Source of the DNA: a virus
Lineage: Duplodnaviria > Caudoviricetes
IMG/VR virus record: IMGVR_UViG_3300010376_000083
Location: 1-36,715 of that record
Length of the DNA stretch: 36,715 bases
Strand: one strand, 5' to 3'
Made by a program: the position numbers and the translations under genes. Shown here one piece after another: positions 1-36,648 of the stretch; position 1 is the stretch's first letter, and each line of letters starts with the position of its first letter. The notes under the pieces were generated by a model, which searched no databases, was not told the origin of the DNA, and saw only the letters and a program-made list of their open reading frames with translations.

Positions 1-78
1 ATTGCGGGGGAAATTTCGTAGCAGCCGGTACCGAAGTTGTCGGGGAGTGGTCGAGGTCCATCTCGAACTGAAGAGAAA

Positions 79-123
79 TGGTGAGCCCGCTGGGACTCGA
101 ACCCAGGACCCACGCCTTAAAAG
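79..123 (-). repeat. att site: duplicated 3' half of tRNA-Lys (anticodon loop to CCA)
   Basis: TGGTGAGCCCGCTGGGACT(C/T)GAACCCAGGACCCACGCCTTAAAAG matches 36573-36617 at 44/45 positions (mismatch at 98 vs 36592). Confidence 0.95.
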
Positions 124-367
124 AGCGTGCGCCACGCCGGAAACGGCGTCGTTCGACTTCCACACCCTGCAAAACCCGCCTCGGTTGATTCCCCTGATAC
201 GCTCCAAACCCTAACATTCCCCAATAGCGCCCCGTCAATCCCCCGAACCTCATCCGTTACGTGGAAAACCCGTACAGGTCCCACACTGCGGTAACCGAGT
301 AACAGTTACACGATCTTTCGCGGGCGTCGCTCGACGCGATCGCGCGCACTTTTCTCGCATTTCGTAT

Positions 368-389
368 ACACAAATTCTAGAATTTGTGT
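368..389. promoter_or_regulatory. Perfect 22-bp palindrome, probable operator for the plus-strand cassette
   Basis: ACACAAATTCT-AGAATTTGTGT is its own reverse complement; AT-rich; about 45 bp upstream of the ATG at 436. Confidence 0.6.
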
Positions 390-435
390 TCTACTGTTCT
401 TTCAACCAATCCCGACCCGAAAGGACACCACGAAA

Positions 436-690
436 ATGCAGATCACCGAAACCAGCAGACAACTCCTCAAGCGATACGCCGAGGATGCCGGCAATTGGAG
501 CGGCATGCCCCTTGTCGGCGGAAACGTCGGCGGATCGAAAGAGGATCGCGGCAACCTCACGCAGCTCAAACGCGCCGGCCTCATCACGACCGACGTCGAC
601 GAGGGTTGCACCTGGCTGATCTTCACCGCGGCCGGCCGAGCCTACTGCCAGGCCGAGTTTGGCATCGATCTCCATCGCTTCGACTACTAG
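436..690 (+). CDS. Hypothetical protein (84 aa), possibly winged-helix-like
   Basis: AAGGA upstream of ATG; protein-like composition; LTQLKRAGLI...LIFTAAGRAY resembles a wHTH C-terminus. Confidence 0.7.
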   Translation: MQITETSRQLLKRYAEDAGNWSGMPLVGGNVGGSKEDRGNLTQLKRAGLITTDVDEGCTWLIFTAAGRAYCQAEFGIDLHRFDY

Positions 691-745
691 CGCCACGCAC
701 CTCAACCGTGCCGGCGCGTATCACCGGCAAAAGGATCGATCGCAA

Positions 746-1243
746 ATGAAAACGATGCTGCTCAACTTTGAACACCGGCCGAGCGAAAAGCCCCTGCGCG
801 TAAAAGTCGTCGGCGAGATCTCGACGGGTTTCCTCGTCGAGTTTCAACCGATGCGCGGCTGCGCCCCCGAGCAAGAACTGCTCACCAAACGCGCCGACGG
901 CGCCCTCGTCAATGTGCACGGCTGCACGTTTGTGATCGTCAAGGCCGATCGCCGGCCGAAACCGTACACCCTGACCTACACCGGCGTAGACGGCCGCGAC
1001 GTGCACAAATTCGCGACGCTCGCCGAGGTACAGAAATACGTGCGCGATCGTTGGCAAGGCGTCGAGTACATGCACAGTGGAGATCCGGCGCCGCGCGCCT
1101 TTCACACCGACTACGGCCGCTACCACCTGGCCGGCTGCACCCTGGCCGATCTCGGCCGGCGCCGCTCGAGCGATCCACACTCAGACGAGTTTTGGGATTG
1201 GACCTGGCACGAGCTCGAGCCCTCGGCCGCCAATGCGCGATAA
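746..1243 (+). CDS. Hypothetical protein (165 aa)
   Basis: In-frame ATG at 746 of ORF 659..1243 with AAGGA upstream; stop overlaps the next start. Confidence 0.7.
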   Translation: MKTMLLNFEHRPSEKPLRVKVVGEISTGFLVEFQPMRGCAPEQELLTKRADGALVNVHGCTFVIVKADRRPKPYTLTYTGVDGRDVHKFATLAEVQKYVRDRWQGVEYMHSGDPAPRAFHTDYGRYHLAGCTLADLGRRRSSDPHSDEFWDWTWHELEPSAANAR

Positions 1244-1688
1244 CCCCGTCAGTCAAAAAGAGCTCGCCGGCCGCGGATGGATTTGCACCCGCCGCGGCCT
1301 CGGCAAGCACGCCCGTTACGCGCACCGCGACGGATGGATGCTCGAGCATTGTGGACACGCGACCGCGCTCACGCCTTGGATACTTCGCGATCGCGACGGC
1401 CGCATGATCCTAACCGGCGCCGCCGGCGAGCACAAAAATCCTGAGTTTGGTACGGCCTGGCCTACACTGAGAGCTGCGACCGATTACGTCGCGACTATCA
1501 CGATGAAAATCGATCTCTCAAAAATCAGCGACGCAGATCTCGCGCGCGAGTGGACTCGGCGTCTCAACCTAAAACGCGATCCAAAAAACGCCGGCCGCAA
1601 AAAGACAATCAAACCGTGCCCCTATTGCGGCGAGCCATTCGGCGCGCGCGATCTGCGCCTGCACGTTCCCCACTGCCCCAAACGCTAA
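1233..1688 (+). CDS. Hypothetical protein with C-terminal C2HC-type zinc finger
   Basis: ATG at 1233 overlaps the previous gene end; ends with CPYCGEPFGARDLRLHVPHC after a basic AGRKKT patch. Confidence 0.7.
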   Translation: MRDNPVSQKELAGRGWICTRRGLGKHARYAHRDGWMLEHCGHATALTPWILRDRDGRMILTGAAGEHKNPEFGTAWPTLRAATDYVATITMKIDLSKISDADLAREWTRRLNLKRDPKNAGRKKTIKPCPYCGEPFGARDLRLHVPHCPKR

Positions 1689-1723
1689 CCAGCACAAAGC
1701 AAATCTAACCAGCACAAAGCAAA
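1685..1723. repeat. Tandem direct repeat, 2 x 19 bp
   Basis: CTAACCAGCACAAAGCAAA at 1685-1703 and 1705-1723. Confidence 0.9.
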
Positions 1724-1760
1724 AAGACGCGCGCCCCTCGAGGCGCGCGTTGCTATTTTT
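1721..1760. terminator. Probable bidirectional intrinsic terminator between convergent genes
   Basis: Stem ACGCGCGCC (1727-1735)/GGCGCGCGT (1742-1750), with an A-run on the left and a T-run on the right. Confidence 0.75.
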
Positions 1761-1777
1761 CAGTTGTCGAGCGACCG

Positions 1778-1789
1778 CTTAAAAGAGCG
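1778..1789 (-). repeat. Second copy of att core (12 bp)
   Basis: CTTAAAAGAGCG is identical to 116-127 and lies 7 bp past the recombinase stop codon. Confidence 0.55.
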
Positions 1790-1796
1790 ATCGCCG

Positions 1797-3089
1797 TCAG
1801 CGCACGGCCGTCGCTCCACGCCGGCGCCGCGCTGGGCGCGCCTCCGGCGCATCTCCCGCCTCGCCGCCCGCGAGTGCAGCGCGTGGAGCGACGCCGTTGA
1901 ATGATCCGGCCGGCGCCGCGATCGGCATGGGAATGCCCACGCCTGGCGCCAGACTCGCCACGCCTGGCGCATAACTCGGCGCCTCGGCATTCATCCAGGC
2001 CGCCGCGGCCCATCGCCGTTTCGATTGCATCGAGATCTGCGTGTAATGCTGCTGCATGGCCGGCCGGATATGCCCCGCGAAACTCATAATTACTTGGATC
2101 GGCACGCCCGCCTCGGCCATGCGCGTTATGGCCGAATGCCGCAGCCCGTAGGGCGTGAGCCAATCGATCCCCGAGGCCGCGCGAACCTCATCCCAGGCCC
2201 GGCGCAGGCCTGAGACCGTCATCGGCCGCAAGGCGTCGTAATGATCGCTCGTGATGTGAAACGGAAACAGATAACAATGCGGCCCCGAGGCGCCAAGCAT
2301 CTTGGCGCGATCGATCAGCGCGCCGAGAGCCCAGGTCACCTCCTGAGTCTGTAGCGGGATCGTGCGGATGCGAAAACGATTTTTCGCGCCCTCCGAGCGG
2401 ATCTGCAGCGTGCCTTGATTGAGGAAAATATCGCCCAGGCGCAGAGCGCGCATTTCATTGGTCGCGGCCGTCGTCTGCAGCGCCACGATCGAACACCAGT
2501 ACACCACGCGCCAGGCCTCGCGCGAGCCGGCCGCGGCGATCCATCGCCGCTGCTCCTCGGGCGTGAGCGCGCGACGCACGTCGGCCTCATCGGGCGAAAC
2601 TAGCTCGACCATTTCGTCGAGCACATCGCTCCAGGCGCCGGCGGCGCGCATGATCCGGATCACGAGCTGCACTTCTTTCAAAATCAGATTGGCGCCCGCC
2701 GGATGATCCCAGGGGTTTTTGACAATCTGCCGGCCGCCCCCATCTTCGACGATCAGACGGTTAGTCGCCCTGGCGCGTTGAAACTCGCGGATGTGCCCGG
2801 CATGGATCTCGGCGAGCGTGAGCTCGTCAAAGAACCTAGCCGCGGCGCGTGCGTACTGGCGCAGATCGCGCTCGGTACGATCAGAAATGTATTTAACCTT
2901 GCGCATCCGCTCCCCAACAGATGCACCCTCGATTACCCTGCGCCCGAGCCACATTTCAAACGCTTCGCGAAACTTGAGCTCGGGCGTCAACTCGCCCGCT
3001 ATCACTTCCCCCGACCCCCTGCACGCAGGGCAATTCTTATGCCCCGGCGTGTGCACTGCGTAATTTGTGGTGATGGTTGTTGGGTCCAT
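1797..3089 (-). CDS. Tyrosine recombinase/phage integrase family protein with an atypical active site
   Basis: KN-x3-IRTIPL, YLFP, PYGLRH, AGH-x7-HY motifs; box I reads LQTTAATNEMRAL (no Arg); N-terminal CPACRGSG; GGAGG RBS before ATG 3089. Confidence 0.9.
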   Translation of the reverse strand: MDPTTITTNYAVHTPGHKNCPACRGSGEVIAGELTPELKFREAFEMWLGRRVIEGASVGERMRKVKYISDRTERDLRQYARAAARFFDELTLAEIHAGHIREFQRARATNRLIVEDGGGRQIVKNPWDHPAGANLILKEVQLVIRIMRAAGAWSDVLDEMVELVSPDEADVRRALTPEEQRRWIAAAGSREAWRVVYWCSIVALQTTAATNEMRALRLGDIFLNQGTLQIRSEGAKNRFRIRTIPLQTQEVTWALGALIDRAKMLGASGPHCYLFPFHITSDHYDALRPMTVSGLRRAWDEVRAASGIDWLTPYGLRHSAITRMAEAGVPIQVIMSFAGHIRPAMQQHYTQISMQSKRRWAAAAWMNAEAPSYAPGVASLAPGVGIPMPIAAPAGSFNGVAPRAALAGGEAGDAPEARPARRRRGATAVR

Positions 3090-3282
3090 AATCAACCTCC
3101 CTAGAGTGCGGGTTCACCCACTAAAGTTGTATGAACCCCCGCAAAGCCTGGCACAAACTGCATACTCGCGTTAGCACAATTGCCCACTCGATACCATGAG
3201 CCAACGCATAGAAGCAAGCCAAACTTTACACAATAGGTGATTTACAGCCCCATACCGTTACACCCCTTTCGTTTTTTCGCTT

Positions 3283-3440
3283 GGTTTAAACCTCGGTTAA
3301 ACCGTCCCATAATGCGGCCCGCAGGCCGCGAGCGTCCCACATTGCGCCGCTGTACTTTCGCTCTAAGTACCGCATTATGTGACGGTTAAGGTTTTCTTAA
3401 GGTTATCCGTAAAACTTTCGTAAAGTACCCTTCGTAAAAC
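3283..3440. promoter_or_regulatory. Repeat-rich non-coding control region upstream of the recombinase
   Basis: 18-bp inverted repeat 3300-3317/3370-3387 (17/18 match); palindrome GGTTTAAACC 3283-3292; three CGTAAA direct repeats in 3406-3440. Confidence 0.55.
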
Positions 3441-3459
3441 CCCCCGCGGCGTTTTCCGT

Positions 3460-3726
3460 CTAAAACAAACTCGCCGCCCTCTGCTGCACTTTGAGCCAAA
3501 GAATCGTGCGCCGCCGGCCGGCCGCATCCTGAGAAACGACAAAGTGCTCGCCGTCTAAGAGCCACACAAACGAGCCATAGATGCCAGGGCGCAGCTCGCC
3601 GATCGCGTCGGCCTCGACGAGCTTGCGCAAGAGCTCGAGCTGCGCCGGCGAAAGATAGCGCAGATTAGATGCGACCCCATCTTGCCGGCGCGAAAATATC
3701 TGATCGATGAATGCTCGAGCCGTCAT
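3460..3726 (-). CDS. Hypothetical protein (88 aa)
   Basis: ATG 12 bp after the upstream stop, co-oriented, plausible composition. Confidence 0.65.
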   Translation of the reverse strand: MTARAFIDQIFSRRQDGVASNLRYLSPAQLELLRKLVEADAIGELRPGIYGSFVWLLDGEHFVVSQDAAGRRRTILWLKVQQRAASLF

Positions 3727-3738
3727 TGCGGGACCCCT

Positions 3739-4239
3739 CTATTGCGCGTGCACGACTTGCAGATTCGCGGGCGGAAAGTTGCCCGTCACGCCCGTAGTGC
3801 AGTTGCTCGGACCCGACTCACCCCCATTCACGAGAGCCGTTACGACATAAGAGTACGTCTGCCCTCCGCTTACTGCCGTGTCGTAGAAGGGCGCCGCGGC
3901 CGTATAGCTTGGCGCGTTGAGCGTGCTCTCGAGCACCCAACCACTCGCGACCACGCCCCCCGGTTCCATCGCAGCCGGCAGCGTCGCGGGACACGTGCCC
4001 GTGATCTTGTACACGTTGGTTGTGCCAGGATTGCCGGCGACCGAATCGATCGACGCACCCCAGGCGAGCGCGACGTAGTGGCCGGCCGGCGCCGTCGTCG
4101 CCGCGGCGATCGGAGTTACGGCCGGAGCATGCGTCGCGATCCTCGGCGGCGCAGGCCTGCGCGGCTGCGTCGGCTGCTGCGCGTGCGCTACAAACAAAAA
4201 GGCGAGCGCCAGGGCGCCCGCCGCGAAACGGAATCTCAT
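3739..4239 (-). CDS. Exported fibronectin type III/Ig-like protein
   Basis: Signal peptide MRFRFAAGALALAFLFVAHA; Pro/Ala linker; VALAW...NVYK...YDTAVSGGQTYSYVVTAL...ESGPSN is an FN3 pattern; AGGAG RBS. Confidence 0.8.
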   Translation of the reverse strand: MRFRFAAGALALAFLFVAHAQQPTQPRRPAPPRIATHAPAVTPIAAATTAPAGHYVALAWGASIDSVAGNPGTTNVYKITGTCPATLPAAMEPGGVVASGWVLESTLNAPSYTAAAPFYDTAVSGGQTYSYVVTALVNGGESGPSNCTTGVTGNFPPANLQVVHAQ

Positions 4240-4294
4240 TGTCTAAATTCTCCTGTCGGTTGAGATATGGCCCGAAACTACCCGAAACTTGCCC

Positions 4295-4318
4295 CACATT
4301 TGACCCAGGAGCTCGCCG
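4295..4318 (-). promoter_or_regulatory. Conserved 24-bp element, copy 1
   Basis: CACATTTGACCCAGGAGCTCGCCG matches 25717-25740 at 22/24; both copies are intergenic and upstream of minus-strand genes. Confidence 0.55.
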
Positions 4319-4335
4319 CGGCGCCGGCCCGAGCC

Positions 4336-4626
4336 CTAGATACCTTTCTTTTGCCGCTCGATCCGGCGACGGCGTAGCGCCAGGCCGCGCAGCTCGATCG
4401 CGAGACGCGAGAGCTCGCCGGCGAGCTCCTCGAGCTCCGCGGCCTCACACGTGAGCACCCGGCCGCGATCGAGCGCGCCGACGCGATCGGAGATCCGCGA
4501 GAGCTCGCGGCGCAGATCCGGCCAGGCGAGCGCGCGAGAGAGCTGCCAGATCACAAGCCAGGCGCGCACCTGGCCGGCCAGATCGGCCGCGGCGACGGCC
4601 ACGACGACGATCACGATCTCGCGCAT
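4336..4626 (-). CDS. Hypothetical protein, hydrophobic N-terminus and coiled-coil C-terminus
   Basis: ATG abuts the tail-tip stop codon; MREIVIVVVAVAAA N-terminus. Confidence 0.6.
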   Translation of the reverse strand: MREIVIVVVAVAAADLAGQVRAWLVIWQLSRALAWPDLRRELSRISDRVGALDRGRVLTCEAAELEELAGELSRLAIELRGLALRRRRIERQKKGI

Positions 4627-7600
4627 CTATGCGAGCCCCACAAAGGTAAACGAGCGATTGGTCGACGTGACCGTGACCGAGGCCGTCGTCATAGCCTCCA
4701 CCTCGAAGACGTGCGAGCCGGCCGACGGCGTCGGCGTGACGAGCGCGAGCTCGTACAAGTTCGCGTGACCCGTCGAGTCTGTCGTGATCTCGAAAGGCCC
4801 CATGATCACGCCCTCGTCCATCAAGACTTGGACAAAGATCGGCGCGCCGCTCGTCGGCGTCGTGCTCGCGCCGAGCGTGCAGGAATAACTCACCGTGCCC
4901 GTCGAGTATCCCGAGTCACCGTTGGAGTTAGTCGTGACCGTCGCGGTCGCCGTCGTGTACGCCGAGCCCCCGGTAATGTGCACCGTCGGCGTCCAAGTAA
5001 AGATCGGCCCCGAGCCCGTCGGCGTCCACGATACCGAGGCCGAGGCGCCTGTGCCGTCGCCCGAGATCGAGATCGTGATCCCCGGAGGCGCCGTACCTGT
5101 CGTCGCGCCTGGCGAGAAACCCGAGATCCCCGTCACCGCGCCGCCCGAGGCGATCGCCGCGAAGTTGAGCAGAATCGAGACGAGCGCCGGCTGGCCGTCG
5201 CAGGTAATCGTCATGCCGGGATCGCTTCCGCCGACGCCTGACAGATCGGCAAACGACGAGCCTACCGTAACCGAGCTCGAGCTGCTCGCCGTTCCTGTCG
5301 AGCCCGAGAAATGCCGCGGCCGCGGCCCGTGCGCTGCCGTCGAGGCCGTCACCCAGGCCGACGCCGCTCCGTCGGCGCGCACCGCGCGAATCTGCAAATT
5401 CATCGTCTGCGTCGACGGCACATTGTCGATGTAACAATTCGTCGAGATCCCCGAGAGTTTGCCGGCGTCGATCCATTGCGACGTGGCCAGGCCGCCGGCG
5501 ACCGTGATCGTGAGCGGCGAGCTCGAAGGTTGGCTGCCGGCAGCCCACACGAATTGATACTGCAATTCGATGTGCCCGCCATTATTGACGCCGTTGTCGA
5601 GCGGAGGCGTCCACTGCACGAGCGCCCGCGGGATCAGCGTCCCATCGCTGCCGATGGTCGCCGTATTGGCGTCATCGGTGATCGTGAGCCCCGTCGGTAC
5701 CGGCACGACGAACGTGTTGCCCTGGCCTTGAAAAACCGGAATGTCGTATGCGTTGAGCTCCTCTTGCGTCGGCGTCCAGTTATAGACGCTCGGATCGGTC
5801 TCGGCGACGTCGAGCTCGAGCCAGGCACTCGGCGTCTCATCGTTGCCGCGCTTCGATACGTGAAACGTGACCCCAATCACCTCGAGCTGCTTATTGACCC
5901 AATTCACCGGCGCCGCGAGATTGAATTGGAAAACGTCCATCGGCTGCATCTGCCAGGCCGCGAGCGAGCAGATCAGCTTGCCCGAGCCCTGCTGCCGGTT
6001 GCGCAGCAAGATGATCTTTGCCACGCGCTGCGCCTGCGCGATCGACAATACGCACGGCTGCTGCACCTCTTTCGGCAGCACGATGCCGCCGTCTTGCTGC
6101 AGGTAGACGTCGACGCCGGCGCCGTAGCCGTGCAGCGCGTCGGCCGCGTACATCGGGTAATTCGACGGCTGAAAGGCATACGGGAAATTGTTCTGCGTCT
6201 GCCCAAGCCAATACCCGTTAGTGTCGTATAAGTCGCCGGCGACGTTGTAAGGGTAGTTAGCCGCGATATAAGTGCCGACGACGCGGTTGCATAACTCCGA
6301 GATCGGGCGATACGGCTGCCACTGCACGGCCTCGAGCAGCACATTTTCATCGAACGTGAAACTCGGCCCTTGCCAATACGCCGGCCAGATGTACCACTGC
6401 CCACCGATGCGCGAGAGCCGGCCCGCGGCTGCGTCCATCATCTGCGCGATCGCGTCGCCTGGCGACGTGCCCGTATCGTAGTGCCAATTGAGCGTATAAC
6501 GCGACTCGGGTTTCGAGAAAAGCACTTTCGAGCCCGAGACAATGGTCGGCGAGGCGCAGGTCACAGCCTCATCGCACACGTTGGCCGCGGCGATCAGTTG
6601 CGCTTGATTCACGGAGTTATCGCCCAGGCCCCAAGTCGCATCCGTGATCGCATCGGCAATGTGCAAAGCCCAATTGTTTGTATATCCACGCGTGCTCGTG
6701 CGCGGATCGTAAATATCACACTTACCGCGGATGGTCGCGCGGATCTCGGGAAACTGCGGAAACTGACCCGAATCGGCCTTGATGTTGATATAGCAGTACG
6801 CGATCCCGCCTAAGTACGGCGTGCCGTCGCTATTGGCCGCCCAGGTTGAATCCTGCGCATTGAGCGCCGTCGCGAAACCTGTCGTCGCGTTCTGATCGCC
6901 GAAATACGGCCAGCACTGCACGAGATTGCCAAAGACATAATGCAAACCATTCGGCCCGATATAGGTCGACCCGTCGGCCGTGCCGCCAAAGAGAAACGCG
7001 CCGTCGATGTACACCGTCGCATGGGTGTAACCCGTCCCGCCATTAGTCAAAGTGATATTGATCGGCAGCCCGCTCTGAATGTTGGCCGTCGCCGTCGCGC
7101 CCGTGCCGTCGCCGACGATGCGCACGCGCGCCGGAATAACCGTCGATGCGCCGAGGCCCGACGAGTATCCGGCAAAATACCCGCCCCCGCTGCCGGCCGT
7201 GAGCGCCAGGCCGGTTATCACGCCCCCCGAGATCGTCGGCGTTACCGTCGCCGGCGTCGCGACCTGGCCGCACGCGATGTTACCGCTCGAGCCCGGATAC
7301 CAGACGACCTGCCGGCCGTCGAGATAGAGATTCGTGTATGCGTCGATCTGATGCGTCGCAAAGGCGACGATCATGTTGTAATGCGAGCGATCGTCGCCCG
7401 TCGTCGAGCAGTAAACCATCGTGCCGCCGACGCGCTGCTCGCCGCGCACGATCTGGCGCAAGGCCGCGGCCTGGCGCGTAGTGACGCCGACGCCGCTATT
7501 CGAGCCGAGCGCCGCGGCGATCGCGCCGGCCTCGGTTGCAATGCCGGCCGCGATCAGCATCGAGCCGAATACCTGGCCGCCAGGGATAAACTCGAGCGCC

Positions 7601-29673: not shown

Positions 29674-29997
29674 TTAACCGCGCGAAATTGTCTCTGTTAC
29701 CGAAACAGACTGTATAACTATTTTTCTTTTCCGTGCCGACAAACTAGGTACTGTGACTCCTGGCAGCAGGGAAACGATCGGAACGCCGAGCACGCGCGCC
29801 AATTCGTGCAGGCGATAGATCGGAATCCTCTGCTCGCCGGATTCCCAAAAATAGATCATTCCCTTACTCACGCCGAGCCGGCGCGCGAGCTCGGCCTGTT
29901 CGATGCGATGTATCCTGCGCACGTTGGCGATCAACGCGCCGACCTGTTGATTGAATTGATTCTCCTCGAGCGTTTTTGGCTTTCTTTGGCCTGGCAT
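29674..29997 (-). CDS. XRE-family helix-turn-helix transcriptional regulator
   Basis: IANVRRIHRIEQAELARRLGVSKGMIYFWESGEQRIP...LARVLGV; TAATG coupling at 29997. Confidence 0.9.
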   Translation of the reverse strand: MPGQRKPKTLEENQFNQQVGALIANVRRIHRIEQAELARRLGVSKGMIYFWESGEQRIPIYRLHELARVLGVPIVSLLPGVTVPSLSARKRKIVIQSVSVTETISRG

Positions 29998-30278
29998 TAG
30001 GCGAGCCCCGCATATCTGCGCATCGCACCGCGCAAATCTTCCGTGATGTGCGGCAGCTTCTCGCCCCCCGGCAGACTGCGCTCGTCGATCCCGCGCTGAT
30101 CGACGTACGGCTGCCCCTGGCGCCAATACACCGTTTCCGAATATCGCGCCGGCGCCGCCAGGCCCTCGTCGTGCTCCAGCTGCAGGATCGCCGCGGCCTG
30201 GCCGTCGTCGTCGAGGATCTCGGCCGGCTCGATCGCGCCGCGTTTCAAACTTGCAATTACCACGAATCGGATCATCAT
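29997..30278 (-). CDS. Hypothetical protein (93 aa)
   Basis: ATGA overlap with the replication gene and TAATG overlap with the XRE gene. Confidence 0.65.
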   Translation of the reverse strand: MMIRFVVIASLKRGAIEPAEILDDDGQAAAILQLEHDEGLAAPARYSETVYWRQGQPYVDQRGIDERSLPGGEKLPHITEDLRGAMRRYAGLA

Positions 30279-31069
30279 CGCCCCCAGGGGTTTTCCTGCT
30301 TAAATTTCTCCGGCATTGATTCCCACATCCGGTAAGCCTCGTCATCGTCGGCCGTCACGATCGCGCGCGGCTGCGATAATGCCGGCCGATCCCGCGACGC
30401 CGCGGCAAACTTGCGATCTTTGAACCAAAACACGTTGACCGTGTCGCCGCGCGCGATCGCGGCCTTGGCGGCCGAGAGCAGCATGCGCGTCGCGTCTTCG
30501 ACTTCGCAGGGCGCATCGCGCGCCGTGTAGGCGATCACCTGGCCGAGCACGCGTACGTCGTACGGCTGCGCAGCCAGGCCGAGCTCGTCGAGCAGCCAGG
30601 TCGCCGCGCCAAACTCGCCGGCCGTTTTCGGCAGCTCGCGCGCGGGCGTGTCCCGCTTCTCTGACGTTTCTTTTACGGATCTACCTATAAGGGGTTTTAG
30701 GGGTTTGTCGTCGTTGTCACCCTTTCCGGTCAGGGTGTCACCCTTTTCTGTCGTCTTTGTCACCCTTTTGCGGCCTGAAAGGGTGACATCCTGACACCCT
30801 TTTAGCTTGTCGACATTTATCAAAAACTCGATAAAATCGCCGCGCCCGTCACCGCGAAACACCTCGATAAAACCGAGCTGCTCGAGCTCCGCGATCGTGC
30901 GCGTCACCGTGCGCTCACTGCAGCGCACAAATCGCGCGATCCGCGGAATCCCCGGAAAACAATTGCCCCCGTCGTCGTCGCCACAATTTGCCAGGTACAC
31001 CAAAACGTTGACCTGAGTGCGATCGCGCAGAGTTGAGCCCCAAACCAAGGACATAACCGAAATAGACAT
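30275..31069 (-). CDS. Replication initiator, HTH_36/O-like
   Basis: MSISVMSLVW...VLVYLAN..DDDG..CFPGIPRIA...SERTVTRTIAELEQLGFI; internal iterons. Confidence 0.85.
   Translation of the reverse strand: MSISVMSLVWGSTLRDRTQVNVLVYLANCGDDDGGNCFPGIPRIARFVRCSERTVTRTIAELEQLGFIEVFRGDGRGDFIEFLINVDKLKGCQDVTLSGRKRVTKTTEKGDTLTGKGDNDDKPLKPLIGRSVKETSEKRDTPARELPKTAGEFGAATWLLDELGLAAQPYDVRVLGQVIAYTARDAPCEVEDATRMLLSAAKAAIARGDTVNVFWFKDRKFAAASRDRPALSQPRAIVTADDDEAYRMWESMPEKFKQENPWGR
30715..30802. repeat. Iterons, probable replication origin
   Basis: TGTCACCCTTT at 30715, 30736 and 30758; inverted copy 30778-30788; variant TGACACCCTTT at 30792. Confidence 0.85.
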
Positions 31070-36572: not shown

Positions 36573-36648
36573 TGGTGAGCCCGCTGGGACTTGAACCCAG
36601 GACCCACGCCTTAAAAGGGCGTTGCTCTACCAACTGAGCTACGGGCTC
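36573..36648 (-). tRNA. tRNA-Lys, anticodon TTT (integration target)
   Basis: 76 nt GAGCCCGTAGCTCAGTTGGTAGAGCAACGCCCTTTTAAGGCGTGGGTCCTGGGTTCAAGTCCCAGCGGGCTCACCA; full cloverleaf with encoded CCA. Confidence 0.98.

Follow-up and report, generated by a model that had tools for sequence, protein, structure and literature searches.

The integrase gene of a tailed prophage very probably encodes an active tyrosine recombinase in which, to judge from its sequence and those of its relatives, the role of the first catalytic arginine (Arg-I) would be supplied by Arg240 on strand beta3. Somewhat less firmly, we think it probable that the family represents a third active-site geometry: the Arg-I guanidinium would come from beta3, four residues after the catalytic lysine (Lys+4), and the arrangement would be a reversible toggle, with about eight moves between box I and beta3 and loss of the other copy each time.

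The integrase and the family-wide absence of Arg-I

The gene lies on the minus strand and spans positions 3089 to 1797 of the window, by which we mean the whole 36,715-nt stretch of DNA that was analysed. As the earlier note had recognized, its reading frame is intact (430 aa) and is preceded by a strong ribosome binding site, GGAGGT, 5 nt 5′ of the ATG (3095..3100, minus strand); the plus-strand frame over 1797..3089 is interrupted by stops. The protein consists of a His/Cys N-terminal module, a core-binding (CB) domain, a catalytic (CAT) domain and a disordered tail, an assignment supported by matches to PF00589 (E 6.5e-18) and phrog_1 (E 1e-31) and by the predicted fold; no NCBIfam model scored above its cut-off. 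An AF2 model with a mean pLDDT of 85 (below 50 in the tail, residues 376-430) has the full CB+CAT fold, and its best match is Tn1549 Int (Foldseek E 2e-9; VIA Z 20.1, rmsd 3.9, 285 aligned). Approximately 35 residues lie N-terminal of the CB domain, with no Pfam arm-binding match. The motif H13-x3-H17-x2-C20-x2-C23 (3021..3053, minus strand) is a predicted zinc site conserved in 31/43 locus-derived proteins, and this small His2-Cys2 module may stand in for an arm-binding domain in the family. Gene callers often miss the motif by starting the gene further down. The CPACRGSG knuckle proposed previously does not generalize, as CxxCxGxG occurs in only 1/382 rows, the query itself.

Box I reads ALQTTAATNEMRAL, with Ala209 (codon GCG; 2463..2465, minus strand) aligned to the canonical Arg-I position and no arginine between L204 and E212, as first noticed. 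The other motifs reported at the outset are likewise in place, all on the minus strand: Lys236 (2382..2384), the catalytic lysine of the beta2-beta3 hairpin, which aligns with the Xer lysine; YGLR(H) at residues 314-318, comprising Tyr314-x-x-Arg317 (2139..2150), where Tyr replaces His-II and Arg-II is kept; G339-H340, with His340 (2070..2072) as His/Trp-III; and the Tyr349 nucleophile (2043..2045). The description of Arg-I as essentially invariant was too strong. In Table 1 of Gibb et al. (2010, PMC2943603) this position is Arg in 91.2% of tyrosine recombinases and mostly Ala or Ser in the remainder, so Ala209 is compatible with membership of the superfamily. The same source gives Tyr at His-II in 6.8% and describes His-II as tolerant of most substitutions in Cre.

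Loss of the arginine is not peculiar to this protein. A first set of 121 rows, made up of the query, its database copy and the best 119 of 251 homologues, contains Arg at position 209 in 0/121 rows, the opposite of the refuting case named in the earlier note, in which close homologues would all carry it; instead the position is Ser (70), Ala (49) or Gly (2), encoded by several codons. The set was widened with the loci, a search from locus L027, whose protein has Arg-I, and the 150 best hits obtained by searching a profile against 50%-identity representatives. Duplicates were removed, and the resulting 382 rows were reduced to 370 by dropping five canonical outgroup proteins and seven fragments without one of the two positions considered below. 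Across these 370 rows, which are 28-71% identical to the query, Arg-I is absent in 361 and present in nine. The rest of the active site is well preserved: Glu-I is kept in 370/370, Lys in 369/370, R317 in 359/370 and H340 in 341/370, with Tyr at the His-II position in 256/370. Among the 355 rows that extend over Lys, Arg-II, His/Trp-III and Tyr, 343 retain all four. Values of dN/dS are 0.05-0.26 in 35/40 closest locus pairs, the other five being saturated, and 0.17-0.24 in 7/8 pairs involving the query. The loss is thus clade-wide and under purifying selection, two properties that the earlier note had singled out for checking.

An integrase with 100% identity to the query is encoded in an independent assembly record (L041) from genome G001, Terracidiphilus sp., and named genome matches are nearly all Acidobacteriota. 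A tblastn search of 50,697 GenBank phages gave no match at 1e-5. Within a distant subgroup (L031-L036), HxxRH has also become YDCRV; L031 and L033-L036 have MGFGE at box I together with YDCRV at box II, and several of these are closely followed by a complete tRNA-Arg(CCT), not by a half. In two loci, L045 (7087-9524) and L054 (10001-11298), family genes stand in tandem, either as two members or as one member plus a fragment.

Mutual exclusion of Arg-I and Arg240

The candidate replacement is Arg240 (2370..2372, minus strand), on strand beta3 and four residues past Lys236. It is present in 361/361 rows without Arg-I, whereas in the nine that carry Arg-I position 240 is Ser, Ala or His and never Arg (0/9). 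The 370 rows therefore divide into 361 and 9, with no row carrying both arginines and no row carrying neither, and reading the positions from ungapped spacing instead of alignment columns leaves these counts unchanged. This exclusion suggests that the second position likely supplies the residue missing from the first. No column other than 240 is strongly associated with the Arg-I state: its Fisher p is 3e-18 (not corrected for kinship), compared with 1e-4 for the next column.

On a tree built without columns 209 and 240 the Arg-I state changes eight times, and all independent pairs agree with the swap (7/7, sign test p 0.016). In a 39-row IQ-TREE phylogeny the Arg-I proteins have different Arg-less sisters, and their monophyly is rejected (AU p 9e-9); the nine proteins fall on about eight separate branches. 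If canonical integrases serve as the outgroup, one loss of Arg-I followed by repeated regains would be the most economical history.

Direct-coupling analysis ranked the 209-240 pair seventh of 19,306, and the pairs 207-244, 206-244 and 211-235 fall among the first 40; from these coupled pairs, box I likely packs against the beta2-beta3 hairpin. The second-ranked pair is 210-314, and this coupling of Thr210 with Tyr314 indicates that replacement of His-II by Tyr probably belongs to the same remodelling. The hairpin itself is one residue longer than in XerD, the spacing from Lys to Pro being 9 in 366/370 rows versus 8.

Other arginines were considered as compensators and rejected. R214, in the EMRAL segment that the earlier note gave as an example, is kept in all nine Arg-I proteins and so does not track the loss as R240 does; the same is true of R107 and R242, both nearly invariant. 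Neither R217 nor R231 nor R323 is lost in the nine Arg-I proteins as R240 is, and an IntDOT-type arginine two residues before Lys occurs in 7/370 rows, the query having Gly. Outside the family, a basic residue at the hairpin position does coexist with a normal Arg-I (Lys in XerD; R-V-R-T-V-P in L059 and L061), so Arg240 by itself is not diagnostic. One protein, P0127, combines Arg240 with a His in place of Arg-I. The R173H variant of Cre is active (PMC2943603), and by this analogy P0127 could represent an intermediate state of the swap.

Attachment sites and the prophage neighbourhood

The element carries terminase, portal, capsid and tail genes and is bounded by an intact tRNA-Lys(TTT) (36573..36648, minus strand) and a displaced 50-nt copy of the tRNA 3′ half, starting at the anticodon stem (79..128, minus strand). 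These two att sites share a repeat (79-128 versus 36573-36622, 50 nt, 96% identity), the first copy of which lies 1.67 kb from the integrase stop, in agreement with the 1.7 kb estimated before. The copies differ immediately 5′ of CTTTTAA, which is consistent with crossover in the tRNA-Lys anticodon loop, where we infer that it takes place. The tRNA-Arg(CCG) that ARAGORN placed at 79-176 is spurious and stems from the att fragment. Two contig runs compared over positions 1-6000 only gave no interpretable excision joint and are uninformative either way. As had been proposed, the integrase is the only integrase-fold protein of the prophage, being the sole PF00589 match in the whole record, which also has no PF00239 match.

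Directly 3′ of the integrase stop, a hairpin (1769..1795, minus strand; fold z -4.1) repeats 12 nt of the att core, with 2 matches in the window versus 0.01 expected; a pattern search for the core matched the two att sites and this hairpin only. With att 1.7 kb distant, the hairpin could be the remnant of an att site, left where the four-gene cassette was inserted, or else a secondary att or integrase-binding site. Between att and integrase lie plus-strand ORFs of 84, 165 and 151 aa (436-1688), the only plus-strand genes identified in the window; the 151-aa ORF, possibly two genes, ends CPYC..HCP. These ORFs have no PHROG match and occur in none of the other loci compared. A perfect 22-nt palindrome upstream of this cassette (368-389) is a possible operator. 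Upstream of the integrase, an AT-rich gap contains an 18-nt inverted repeat (3300-3387; 94%, arms 52 nt apart) with no match in Rfam, which returned nothing real across 1-4000. Next comes an 88-aa minus-strand ORF (3460-3726), a candidate excisionase or regulator; it has no Pfam or PHROG match, and 11 other loci carry relatives of it upstream of their integrases.

Proximity to tRNA fragments extends to the family, whose members behave like integrases in this respect. We counted att sites in 40 loci with at least 300 nt past the stop, setting aside 13 loci with less than 300 nt as well as L006 (a duplicate), L029 (no stop) and the distant L038-L040 and L059-L065. A same-strand tRNA T-arm with CCA was present no more than 2 kb downstream in 27/40 loci, within 630 nt in 26 of them, compared with 0/40 on the opposite strand and 4/524 control windows; the strict pattern is absent from the other 13 loci. 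The att distance of 1.7 kb in the query thus contrasts with 70-630 nt in the other 26. Many of the 13 records with less than 300 nt past the stop finish at the gene's stop. Anticodons of the adjoining arms are TTT (9), CAT (9), CGT (3) and CCT (3), plus CCG, ACG and TCT. The target tRNA follows the integrase tree, with six changes versus a shuffled mean of 12.1 (0/2000 shuffles; 23 rows), a pattern to which we attach little weight because kin share both labels and hosts.

The integrase is also the sole PF00589 match in 33/36 virus records, most of them fragments, including all five that are at least 90% complete, and PF07508 gave no match over its cut-off in any of the 36. In genome G038, a second tRNA-Lys prophage has the same layout, a 40-kb element with this recombinase alone that is flanked by a complete tRNA-Lys on one side and by its 3′ half on the other. 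An empty tRNA-Lys site with both host flanks joined was found at 2/24 related tRNA-Lys loci. The earlier suggestion that integration is supplied in trans by another element at the same tRNA found no support in host G001: its 16 other PF00589 matches all lie elsewhere than the contigs at the tRNA, and no second tyrosine recombinase is present on those contigs (C84 and C171) of an incomplete assembly in which the prophage occupies at least two contigs.

Known recombinases and rival explanations

Replacement of Arg-I from a distance has a precedent. According to Smyshlyaev et al. (2021, PMC8138268, citing Kim et al. 2010), IntDOT has an arginine further along the chain in place of Arg-I, and within its subgroup this arginine can occupy either of two sites. 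The query family resembles IntDOT/IntCTnDOT in the absence of Arg-I and the proposed transfer of its role downstream, but differs in position: the Bacteroides-type rows of that paper's alignment, presumably IntCTnDOT members, have the arginine two residues before Lys (RQKT), not four residues after it. IntCTnDOT further has an arm-binding domain and belongs to Bacteroidetes ICEs, whereas the query family has about 35 residues before CB and belongs to Acidobacteriota tailed prophages. The IntDes subgroup, described as restricted to Deltaproteobacteria (PMC8138268), shares Tyr at His-II (YDLRH/YDIRH); however, the three Desulfovibrio rows of the same alignment, which appear to be IntDes members, keep the box I arginine (NLGVRTSE, NLGTRPSE) that the query family lacks. 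The RQKT arginine at Lys-2 and the Desulfovibrio box I arginine place the query family in neither group. The query family's motifs ATNE, KNKYR and KNRYR are absent from the PMC8138268 alignment, and its three STNE matches are unrelated. In other respects the family is similar to tRNA-targeting integrases of the lambda/HP1/P2 type, with CB+CAT domains, a gene beside att, a duplicated tRNA 3′ half and a crossover likely in the anticodon loop, but it has no canonical Arg-I, no recognised arm-binding domain and a short His/Cys N-terminal motif. A Tunturi virus paper notes integrases in Acidobacteriota phages in a passage that gives no active-site detail (PMC11924767), and a literature search, with subscription journals outside its coverage, returned no account of this integrase family or of a Lys+4 arginine.

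The most serious alternative, itself improbable, is an active integrase in which Arg240 is only structural, filling a pocket or binding a neighbouring phosphate, while the chemistry proceeds without an Arg-I equivalent or via another residue. What the covariation records is exclusion, and a steric clash alone could give the same pattern, as two large side chains may exclude each other; R107 and R242 are nearly invariant as well, and Gibb et al. allow geometries needing no box I arginine (PMC2943603). Yet a steric rule that forbids Arg/Arg would permit neither/neither, a combination seen in 0/370 rows; moreover, R107, R214 and R242 persist beside Arg-I in all nine proteins where Arg240 does not, and the R173A substitution in Cre is reported as a devastating loss (PMC2943603). 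Charge neutralisation is described as rescuing Arg-I or Arg-II mutants (PMC4499138).

Less probable still is a catalytically dead protein domesticated as a DNA-binding regulator, with another enzyme performing integration. MrpR (YopR) of SPbeta is a real precedent, a phage protein of tyrosine-recombinase fold that keeps Lys and Tyr and is inactive (PMC10516654), and both the att-like hairpin directly after the gene and the 16 PF00589 matches elsewhere in the host genome would fit such a role. But MrpR, with 3/7 catalytic residues (PMC10516654), has lost both arginines and the histidines, whereas in the query family five of seven remain (E, K, Arg-II, His-III and Tyr) alongside a candidate substitute, and the integrase model is less similar to MrpR (Z 12.1, rmsd 4.3, 176 aligned) than to active integrases (Z 16-20). 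No other recombinase was found in the element, on the host contigs at the tRNA or in most related phages, the genes adjoin att fragments of several different tRNAs, and an XRE-type HTH gene is present elsewhere in the prophage (29674-30345). Nor does a dead enzyme give any reason for Arg209 and Arg240 to exclude each other. Of the two options originally offered, the unusual active-site variant is supported and the domesticated regulator is not; the integrase could nonetheless have a side role in regulation. The idea that Ala209 is a sequencing error, or an inactivating mutation private to one decaying prophage, has nothing but the motif itself in its favour and deserves almost no credence. It is ruled out by the lack of Arg at 209 throughout the 121-row set, and the several Ser/Ala/Gly codons in use at this position, the purifying selection and the identical copy in an independent assembly record all speak against it.

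We therefore return to an active integrase that uses Arg240. In the mechanism we propose, a small residue at 209 (Ser, Ala or Gly) would make room for the Arg240 side chain, which would reach the scissile phosphate from the longer beta2-beta3 hairpin and take over the phosphate-binding role, and the change of His-II to Tyr314 would belong to the same active-site remodelling. Tyr349 would attack as usual, with Lys236 protonating the leaving 5′-O. Strand exchange would then span the tRNA-Lys anticodon loop, the 7 nt CTTTTAA, and the phage would supply a new 3′ half of the tRNA.

Gibb et al. asked whether recombinases without Arg-I are inactive or use a different geometry (PMC2943603). A natural family in which Arg-I and Arg240 replace each other would offer a population-scale answer, from one large clade, to that question about the 9% without Arg-I, and the repeated two-way arginine swap is the part that specialists may find most notable. 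For many Acidobacteriota prophages, motif-based calls of an inactive integrase or a defective prophage would mislead. The family is also a lead towards tRNA-targeting integrases for a phylum of soil bacteria, where they may have value as tools.
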